Shown piece after piece: positions 52,701 to 55,700 of a DNA stretch of 64,000 bases. Both the position numbers and the translations under genes were made by a program. This DNA is from Octopus vulgaris (Eukaryota): assembly GCA_951406725.2 (NCBI GenBank), contig OX597833.1, forward strand, positions 53,258,001 through 53,322,000, written 5' to 3'. Numbering within the stretch: position 1 is the stretch's first letter; each line of letters opens with the position of its first letter. Below the pieces are notes generated by a model, which saw only the letters and a list, made by a program, of their open reading frames with translations, had not been told where the DNA came from and searched no databases.

Positions 52701-55700
52701 AAACAAAATTGCTTACTTTAAAACAAAATATGACCAAACAAGTACACAATTTCAACTAAATTCACACACAAATATAAACATATAAATATATATATATATA
52801 TATATATATATATATATATATATAAAATAGTAAAAAGTGAAAAAACTACAGAAGGCTTGTTTTAAAAGGTTAAAAAATATATATTTGAGTCAATATGTCT
52901 GAAGAATGTTATAAATTTTTTTCATACAATGACATCTCTTCTCAACGTAAACATAACGATGTAAGAAATTTGAAAAGCTGAACGCGAAACCGGTCATTTC
53001 TTCTAAAACTATGTCATTGTATGAAAAAAATTTATAACATTCTTCAGACATATTGACACAAATATATATTTTTTAACCTTTTAAAACAAGCCTTCTGTAG
53101 TTTTTTTCACTTTTTACTATTTTCTATATATTCAACCACATGCTTTCACACACCAACTTTCTCACCATATATATATATATATATATATATATATATATAT
53201 ATATAGTTAATCCAAACAAGAAAGCACAAAAAAACACAACAACGCGAGGACGTGGAACAAATATAGTATTATTGGACGCTCAGGAAAGAAGGAAAGAAGG
53301 AGGGTTTAACGTTTCGAGCGGAGCTCTTCGTCAGAAACATAGAAGGAAAGGTCCAGAGAAGGGAAGACAGAGGAAAAAAAAAAAAATCGCCAACGGTACA
53401 CACGAGGTCACATTTTGTATATATATATATATATATATATATATATATATATATATATATATATATAATACATAAGGGACAAGAACGCAAAACATCCGGA
53501 CAACTAGGTGATACAAAAAGGGACAACAAAACATCCAGATAGACAATACAAAAAAACAAGGACGGGTCATTTGAAGCCTTTTATCCTCAATCAAGAACCA
53601 GATCATCCTCGCAATTTCGGCTGATTAATACACACACACACGTTCCGAACAATGTGACTATGGAACGTTGCCTCTTCAATAAAAGTTAGCGGTTCCCCTC
53701 TCTCCTCTCTTCTGTCTCTCTCTATCCATCCGGTTACAGTTGCGAAATTTTGTGTCAGTCGATGAGAATCAGCCGAATGCAAAAACAATCATTAGTTACT
53801 TCCCTTATGTTGGTTTAATTCTCCAAGAGTTATTCCCCTTGACTATAAGTGAACTTGTGGCTTCGAGTATAATTTGTGGATAAGAAAGAAAAATTGGGAA
53901 AAAAGGACATCATTGATAATATTAAATTGATTATTTCAGATATGTAATATCGCATAAATCATTTACATATTTAGAAATGATATTACACTTTTTAAGCACA
54001 CTCACATTAGAAAGGATGTATAAATTCATGTACAAATACATATACTTATATATATATTTACTCTTTATCTTATATTAAACTCTTTAATACTTTTTGATAG
54101 TTATATATATATATATATATATATATATATATAAAATAATAATAATAATAATAATAATAATAAAAATATATATATATATATATATTTAAAAATTTATAAG
54201 TATAAATTATTCATTTAATAATTTTTTAAATTTTAACTTTAATTTAAATATTTTAAATTTTGAATTTTATATGTCTTTTATTAATTAATTTTATTTCTAT
54301 GTATTGGTTTATGATTTTCACTGTTTGATTTGTCTAATAGTGGGTTTATCTCTAATTTATATATATATATATATATATATATATATATATATTTATACTA
54401 TAAAATTAGATTTAATCCTAAATCTAATTTTTCCCTGTAAGTTTGGATTTACTCCCTAATATTATTATTATTATACATATATATATATATATATATATAT
54501 ATATAATAGCTTATCGCCAAGCTAATATGGCAGTTCAGAAAAATAGGAGGAATGCTGCCGTTTTTTTCTGGACTGCCACGTTAGCTTGGCGATAACTATT
54601 AATATCCAGTAACGCTGCCGTAGTCTCCCTTAGAGAGAATTAGAAATAATGATATATATGTGTGTGTGTATATATATATATATATATATATATATATATA
54701 TATATATATATATATAGGGAGAGAGGGAGAGAAGCAAAGGCTATGTGGTAAGATGCTTGCTTCCCAACCAAATGGTTCTGGGTTCAGTCCCACTGCGGGG
54801 CACCTTGGGCAAGTGTCCTCTATTATAGTATTGGGCTGACCAAAATCTCGTGAGTGGATTTGGTAGACAGAAACTTACATAAATAGGTTATTTTTTTTAT
54901 TAAACATAACTAGTCTAGTAATCTTTTCATACTACCTCATGTGTTTCACTTGTTTGCCTGTTCACTGAGGCTGCCATATATGTAGGTGCTGACCTGGCTG
55001 TGTGGTTAAGAAGGATCTTCCCAGCTATATGGTCGTGGGTTCAGTTCTACTCCATGGCCCCTACAGCAAGTGTCTTCTGCAACAGAGCCGAGTAGACTGG
55101 GTAGAGAGAAACAGAAAGAAGCCCACCATAGGTGCAGGAGTGGCTGTGTGGTAAGTAGCTTGCTTACCAACCACATGGTTCCAGGTTCAGTCCCACTGCG
55201 TGACACCTTGGGCAAGTGTCTTCTACTATAGCCTCGGGCCAACCAAAGCCTTGTAAGTGGATTTGGTAGACGGAAACTGAAAGAAGCCCATCGTATATAT
55301 GTATATATATATATGCGTGTGTGTGTTTGTGTGTCTGTGTTTGTCCCCCTAGCATTGCTTGATAACCAATGCTGGTGTGTTTACGTCCCCATTACTTAGC
55401 GGTTCGGCAAAAGAGACCGATAGAATAAGTACTGGGCTTACAAAAGAATAAGTCCCGGGGTCAAGTTGCTTGATTAAAGGCGGTGCTCCAGCATGGCCAC
55501 AGTCAAATGACTGAAACAAGTAAAAGAGTAAAGAGAGAGAGTATATGTGTGTGTTCAAGTGTTAATATTGGCTTGTAGTTGTAAATGAGCATCAGAGTCA
55601 TACAAGCTGTGTCATTCATTTACAATCTTTCATGGAAATGCGTCCAACAACTTGGAAATAGGGGACAGTTGGCTACAGGAAGGGCATCCAGTTACAAAAA

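Follow-up and report, generated by a model that had tools for sequence, protein, structure and literature searches.

Structure of the locus

The 64,000-nt stretch of Octopus vulgaris DNA analysed here (the window) carries a long inverted repeat inside an intron of GMDS (Table 1). Exons matching the PF16363 profile flank the site on the minus strand, which bears out the intronic location given in the initial annotation. The near-perfect 112-bp repeat with a 75-nt spacer described there was also recovered. Its arms, of 112 and 113 nt, differ by one substitution (52888 versus 53058) and one 1-nt homopolymer indel, and their pairing extends a further 8 bases, with one mismatch, into the TA flank. 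The tail that follows the right arm is rich in A and C, which together occupy 25 of the 35 nt of 53132-53166. No second copy of the element was found by BLAST within the 64-kb window, and a target-site duplication was unreadable inside the TA repeats.

Table 1. Features of the insertion and its surroundings, in window coordinates
Feature	Position	Strand	Remarks
GMDS exon, PF16363 profile 54-89	46138-46245	-	profile match
GMDS intron with the insertion	46246..55873	-	approximate limits from flanking exon matches
GMDS exon, PF16363 profile 24-50	55874-55963	-	profile match below curated cut-off
(TA)19 microsatellite	52787..52824	none	left flank, likely insertion target
[quoted passage not shown]
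Spacer between arms	52936-53010 (75 nt)		contains the hammerhead motif
Direct copy	52936-53166	+	truncated at its 5' side; belongs to a repeat family of high copy number and is likely a Penelope-like 3' pLTR
Type I minimal hammerhead motif, U3-A8 core	52963-53002 (40 nt)	+	descriptor search, folding
Stem I	52963-52969 with 52996-53002	+	7 bp
Core	52970-52976	+	U3 = 52970, A8 = 52975; heptamer UUGAAAA
Stem II	52977-78 with 52984-85	+	2 bp, 5-nt loop, G10.1-C11.1
GAAA	52986-52989	+	part of core
Palindrome ACCGGT	52989-52994	+	helix III
C17, predicted cut site	52995	+	cleavage predicted after C17
Right arm	53011-53123 (113 nt)	+	section of the direct copy mirrored by the left arm
Extension on direct copy only	53124-53166 (43 nt)	+	last 35 nt (53132-53166) AC-rich, the PLE 'tail'
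(TA)19 microsatellite	53168..53205	none	right flank
Second, unrelated repeat-family fragment	53206-53417	-	canonical C3-G8 minimal hammerhead, core begins 53334, U17

On the pre-mRNA strand, folding of the repeat gives a highly stable predicted hairpin (-174.9 kcal/mol, z -26.8), and none of 100 shuffled sequences was as stable. The long double-stranded RNA stem that had been proposed for the GMDS intron is thus upheld by folding. This 112-bp intronic stem is likely the sole effect of the insertion on the host, and its consequence appears small; the stem could be edited by ADAR. Differences of the A>G and T>C type over the element occur in DNA runs too. GMDS introns also hold a self-complementary stretch at 47109-47246 (138 nt, 88%) and an inverted repeat pair at 24154-24287/26049-26182 (134 nt, 88%, 1.8 kb apart).

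A hammerhead motif with a U3-A8 core

As first annotated, the spacer contains a plus-strand hammerhead motif with a U3-A8 core. The motif has the features of a type I hammerhead: an N3-U-G-A-N-N8-A core with a Watson-Crick 3-8 pair, the GAAA and U-H elements, three helices round the core, and G10.1-C11.1. The descriptor used for the search was composed after the motif had been seen, and the following shuffle statistics are to be read in that light: block-wise dinucleotide shuffles of the window (n = 150) yielded no C3-G8 or U3-A8 match. When the letters at positions 3 and 8 were left free, 600 shuffles yielded 15 matches with a stem I of at least 4 bp; a Watson-Crick 3-8 pair was present in four of these, and a stem I of at least 7 bp in none. 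The same search of the real window returned three matches, all three with a Watson-Crick 3-8 pair (C-G, U-A, and G-C).

Rfam hammerhead models gave no match at gathering score anywhere in the window, and a search at E up to 10 over 52700-53300 returned no hammerhead; both gave just hairpin and TA noise. The canonical-core motif at 53334 was missed as well, which shows that minimal forms of this kind fall outside the models. Metagenome contigs scanned with a degenerate U3-A8 pattern contained 18 matches at 17 loci, in which stem I never exceeded 4 bp. These were rejected as chance matches, and no relative was found in that scan.

The repeat family in public sequencing runs

Part of 52824-53165 was present in 20 of the 24 listed sequencing runs, which came from nine studies and carried four organism labels; none of these was listed as RNA, although one (X13) may be. 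Contigs of four of the 24 runs were placed on 52910-53166, using a likeness of 80% and a share cut-off of 3%; the placed stretch covered just 26 nt of the left arm and none of the TA tract. The numbers of contigs placed were 1940, 1079, 291, and 137 per run. Summed depth at the core reached about 4.9 × 10^5 in run X1, compared with 35-85 for the single contigs listed, a ratio that suggests a family of roughly 10^4 copies without being a true copy number.

The U3-A8 pair had initially been regarded as compensatory, and in the contigs of the four runs it proved to be the state of the family. At 52970 and 52975, no alternative letter reached 3% of depth in the deepest spacer bins of any of the four runs, so that neither C3 nor G8 was seen at that level. 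We therefore rejected a CTGAAGA consensus from which this copy had simply decayed, within the limits of contig data, which drop rare variants and from which a C3-G8 subfamily less than 80% alike would escape placement. Variable sites inside the 40-nt motif were 52983 in loop 2 (up to 5%) and a deletion at 52996 (8-9%, two runs). The stems were invariant at the 3% level, and covariation within the family was not seen. Conservation of the motif (one variable place in 40) did not differ significantly from that of the arm (12 in 113; Fisher p 0.19).

The contigs also delimit the family. Its depth carries on past the right arm to 53166. In other copies (16 contigs, X1) the family sequence gives way to TA repeats after 53131, in agreement with the end of the left arm. 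Upstream of 52936, loose ends show that the family goes on with other sequence (seven contigs, X1), as do loose ends before 52942; this copy is therefore 5'-truncated. At 52936-52962, the upstream loose ends repeat a 13-nt word that also occurs at 52948-52960, which suggests a putative short tandem duplication just 5' of the hammerhead.

Opposite-strand joints were found at 52938/53043 (one contig each in X1 and X3) and at 53006/53039 (one contig, X1). The first has the topology seen in the window and may come from a separate insertion or from an allele of this one that carries a deletion. Over the fold-back junction region, 52910-52927, depth was zero and no joint was listed in any of the four runs, with X1 read to about 76% and the runs not necessarily derived from the assembled individual. 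This gap, which filtering could also cause, was weighed neither for nor against the candidate fold-back junction of this copy at 52935/52936.

Predicted folding and activity

The hammerhead fold of the monomer is weak (-2.3 kcal/mol) and is not the minimum free energy (MFE) structure of the spacer, which is an alternative fold whose upstream bases occupy the 5' strand of stem I. When two motifs were co-folded, the double hammerhead was the MFE structure (-13.3 kcal/mol). This modelling predicts a hammerhead that functions only when two copies pair through the ACCGGU palindrome. Metazoan PLE hammerheads have been reported to be inactive as monomers and to show low activity as dimers (PMC4209133; PMC6765202). 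Cleavage would then take place in tandem pLTR transcripts of source copies, perhaps aided by the protein of the element.

A search of the 64-kb window for a same-strand hammerhead partner of the same family found none, and the lone copy is probably silent for want of one. Because GMDS lies on the minus strand and the hammerhead on the plus strand, the ribozyme is antisense to the host pre-mRNA, and GMDS pre-mRNA cannot be cleaved by it. The antisense orientation, the predicted dimer-only fold, and the lack of a partner in cis correct the initial annotation: the possibly active ribozyme suggested there is unlikely to act in place, given also the weak fold of its monomer.

Loop 2 starts with UGAA, and the common family allele at 53001-53004 is UUCA; at 53004, A makes up 47-82% of family depth and this copy has T. 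Pairing of these two stretches could form a pseudoknot that braces the short stem II, as pseudoknots do in natural hammerheads (PMC3088659). This possible interaction is a lead only, as it is just 4 bp long, would compete with the terminal part of stem I, and has no covariation behind it.

Origin of the insertion

We consider it probable that the locus holds the direct 3' end of a Penelope-like family member (52936-53166) joined head-to-head to an inverted, tail-less copy (52824-52935), flanked by TA repeats in the GMDS intron. Its anatomy, with an AC-rich tail, an inverted 5' copy, and a TA target, sustains the Penelope-like insertion put forward earlier. The hammerhead lies near the 3' end of the pLTR, and 128-171 nt separate its cut site from the element ends downstream. 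The tail (53124/53132-53166) is confined to the direct copy, and both types of end occur in the family. The inverted copy is 5'-truncated, and its breakpoints vary (the window and two other joints, three contigs in total). The (TA)n target is represented by (TA)19 on both sides and by loose ends that run into TA repeats. PLE insertions are described with 30-40 bp tails on one end, inverted 5' copies, and (TA)n targets (PMC8557442; PMC3846280).

The fragment is non-coding, with no ORF in it, and a link to RT/GIY-YIG is therefore absent from the case for a PLE. The insertion is likely a dead, 5'-truncated Penelope-like fragment. It had also been called young; the identity of the arms does suggest a recent event, and is the sole support for its age.

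Judging from other PLEs, a GIY-YIG endonuclease would have cut both strands of the AT-rich target, and reverse transcription would have been primed on each strand, once at the tail end and once at the tail-less start site. If both cDNAs halted early and were joined head to head, an inverted repeat would result. The Poseidon PLE protein was reported to cut and extend both target strands at AT-rich sites in vitro, with reverse transcription beginning at two sites that delimit the AC-rich tail (PMC11167929). According to the same source, the Poseidon hammerhead is protein-assisted and dispensable for insertion. Self-priming on an antisense template has been described as an alternative route to the inversion (PMC3846280). 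Conceivably, the two cDNAs were copied from two different family RNAs.

This last point can be considered from the differences between the arms, at 53058 and in the T run from 53101. In each of three runs, both rank among the three places where the arm varies most, and at both the left arm bears an allele that is common in the family (T in 45-62%, deletion in 46-70%). Treating the sites as unlinked, the probability that a random family copy matches the left arm at all listed places is 0.02-0.06, compared with 0.003 for a single random substitution striking that place and letter. The arm differences thus hint at two RNA templates, on the basis of one locus, and gene conversion, a mutational hotspot, or a polishing error would fit equally well. 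Should two templates prove to be the rule across the genome, this would be relevant to the debated matter of how PLEs come to have inverted repeats. The fullest version of this account is rather doubtful as a whole: that a family of about 10^4 copies has fixed a compact, dimer-cleaving hammerhead with a pseudoknot-braced stem II, and that the arms came from two RNAs, i.e. from two opposite-strand primings rather than self-priming.

Several other origins were weighed against the Penelope-like reading. The best of them, unlikely but worth keeping in view, is a non-autonomous SINE mobilised by PLEs, or a non-LTR retrozyme, which would have no ORF of its own and would insert by the same chemistry. 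The very high apparent copy number of the family and the absence of a visible ORF fit this idea, as do animal non-LTR retrozymes, which carry type I hammerheads and have been proposed to derive from PLE pLTRs (10.64898/2026.07.22.740005; PMC7229834). However, published retrozymes form tandem arrays with canonical hammerheads (PMC7229834), whereas the motif here is minimal, tandem monomers are absent from the locus, and the window holds a single motif of the family. The tail and the inverted copy, moreover, are pLTR features.

It is less likely still that the left arm is an assembly or polishing artefact, such as a fold-back read or two copies joined, within a hammerhead family that is itself real. 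Genome assembly is known to have difficulty with inverted PLE structures (PMC8557442), and the common alleles that the left arm carries at both differing places could stem from mis-mapped polishing reads. Yet the arms are not identical, as those of a simple fold-back would be, and the 43-nt extension is present on the right arm only, starting at a boundary found in other family copies. Other opposite-strand joints occur in the contigs of two runs, and the order and strand of the flanking GMDS exons are intact.

A MITE or fold-back DNA transposon with 112-bp TIRs and a TA target, in which the spacer resembles a hammerhead by chance, would account for a short, non-coding unit with long near-perfect inverted ends and TA flanks. 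This we regard as very improbable, because the family runs 43 nt beyond the right 'TIR', its sequence upstream of the spacer differs (seven loose-end contigs at 52936, X1), and other inversion joints have different breakpoints. A fixed MITE unit bounded by TIRs was rejected, as the family overruns both the inner and the outer 'TIR' limits. It is barely credible that the motif is a decayed canonical C3-G8 hammerhead whose two core transitions arose by chance and only look like covariation. C-to-T and G-to-A changes are frequent, and another family has a decayed core at about 36170, but neither T>C at 52970 nor A>G at 52975 reached 3% in the deepest spacer bins of four runs.

Neighbouring fragments and other motifs in the window

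The second fragment in Table 1 (53206-53417) is bounded by TA tracts, lies tail-to-tail with the U3-A8 element, and is followed by a third TA tract, an arrangement that suggests repeated insertion into one TA tract. Alignment revealed no homology between the two. Its hammerhead is sense to GMDS pre-mRNA, but lone. A sister of this fragment, about 70% alike and with a broken core, lies beside a TA tract at approximately 36038-36200. By eye, a possible third and more decayed fragment was noted on the minus strand at 53470-53640, ending at a (TA)25 tract and containing a degenerate hammerhead-like stretch near 53590-53565.

The remaining hammerhead-like motif, at 20002-20052 on the minus strand, has a G3-C8 core that begins at 20045. 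It comprises a 7-bp stem I, a length matched by none of 600 shuffles, an extra base after A9, a 5-bp stem II, a palindromic helix III, and U17. Within the window this motif occurs once. It lies in the last GMDS intron, flanked by exons near 21577 and 19720, and is sense to the gene. G3-C8 is reported in PMC3884650 as an engineered variant, and this motif is possibly more novel than the U3-A8 one.

Broken ORFs of other mobile elements were named by eye, with no family match among the three of the four that were scanned: a LINE-type RT at 10003-11658 (+), Tc1/mariner-like transposase pieces at 4748-5444 (+) and 43064-43315 (-), and a LINE 3' piece at 58335-58742 (-).

Comparison with known systems

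Taken together, the locus carries a real, family-wide U3-A8 minimal hammerhead motif in what is likely a PLE end fragment. Literature listings on hammerheads in octopus or other cephalopods showed no description of this family. Thirty-one recently active PLE families are reported for O. vulgaris (PMC13282606), and the main text of that repeat paper contains neither 'hammerhead' nor 'ribozyme'.

The U3-A8 variant itself is not new. Natural examples were reported in 2011, along with the remark that the variant had earlier proved active in vitro (Perreault et al. 2011, PMC3088659), and in 2014 about 1,300 U3-A8 matches were reported from Cercyon PLEs of Schistosoma mansoni (Cervera and de la Pena 2014, PMC4209133). 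The entry S. mansoni(4) has the same core heptamer, UUGAAAA. Cercyon hammerheads resemble ours in being type I minimal motifs with G10.1-C11.1 and a palindromic helix III, found mostly as lone motifs from truncated copies. They come from a different host, and their two U3-A8 entries in Fig. S3 have stems II of 4 and 6 bp, in contrast to 2 bp here, where stem I is 7 bp, helix III is a 6-nt palindrome, and no extra base follows A9. The extra base 9/10.1 and the long helix II of the PLE consensus (Cervera 2014) are both absent from our motif. Among the 56 motifs of Fig. S3 (PMC4209133), the shortest stem II is 3 bp, none has 2 bp, and two lack the extra base.

Among the natural hammerheads described by Perreault et al. 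(2011, PMC3088659), several examples share the U3-A8 covariation, and a stem II of 2 bp is common. Those motifs often need a stem I-II pseudoknot and cleave singly, whereas here the pseudoknot is a possibility and helix III is predicted to need a dimer. Non-LTR animal retrozymes (PMC7229834; 10.64898/2026.07.22.740005) are likewise non-coding, AT-rich, and PLE-related, with a type I hammerhead, but they are built of tandem monomers with canonical hammerheads, unlike the lone minimal motif, inverted arm, and tail found here.

The insertion as a whole resembles the inverted-pLTR insertions of EN+ PLEs (Arkhipova et al. 2013, PMC3846280; Craig et al. 2021, PMC8557442; Frangieh et al. 2024, PMC11167929). 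Shared features are the inverted 5'-truncated copy, the AC-rich tail of 30-40 nt on one end only, the (TA)n or AT-rich target, and the pLTR hammerhead. Of the direct copy, no more than the final 231 nt are left here, and assignment to a clade (Neptune, Poseidon, Nematis, Hydra) needs the RT. This family extends the known PLE hammerheads to a further host lineage and to a compact form. It also shows that a large family can carry U3-A8 as its regular state, so that scans for CUGANGA only will undercount ribozyme motifs in genomes of this kind.
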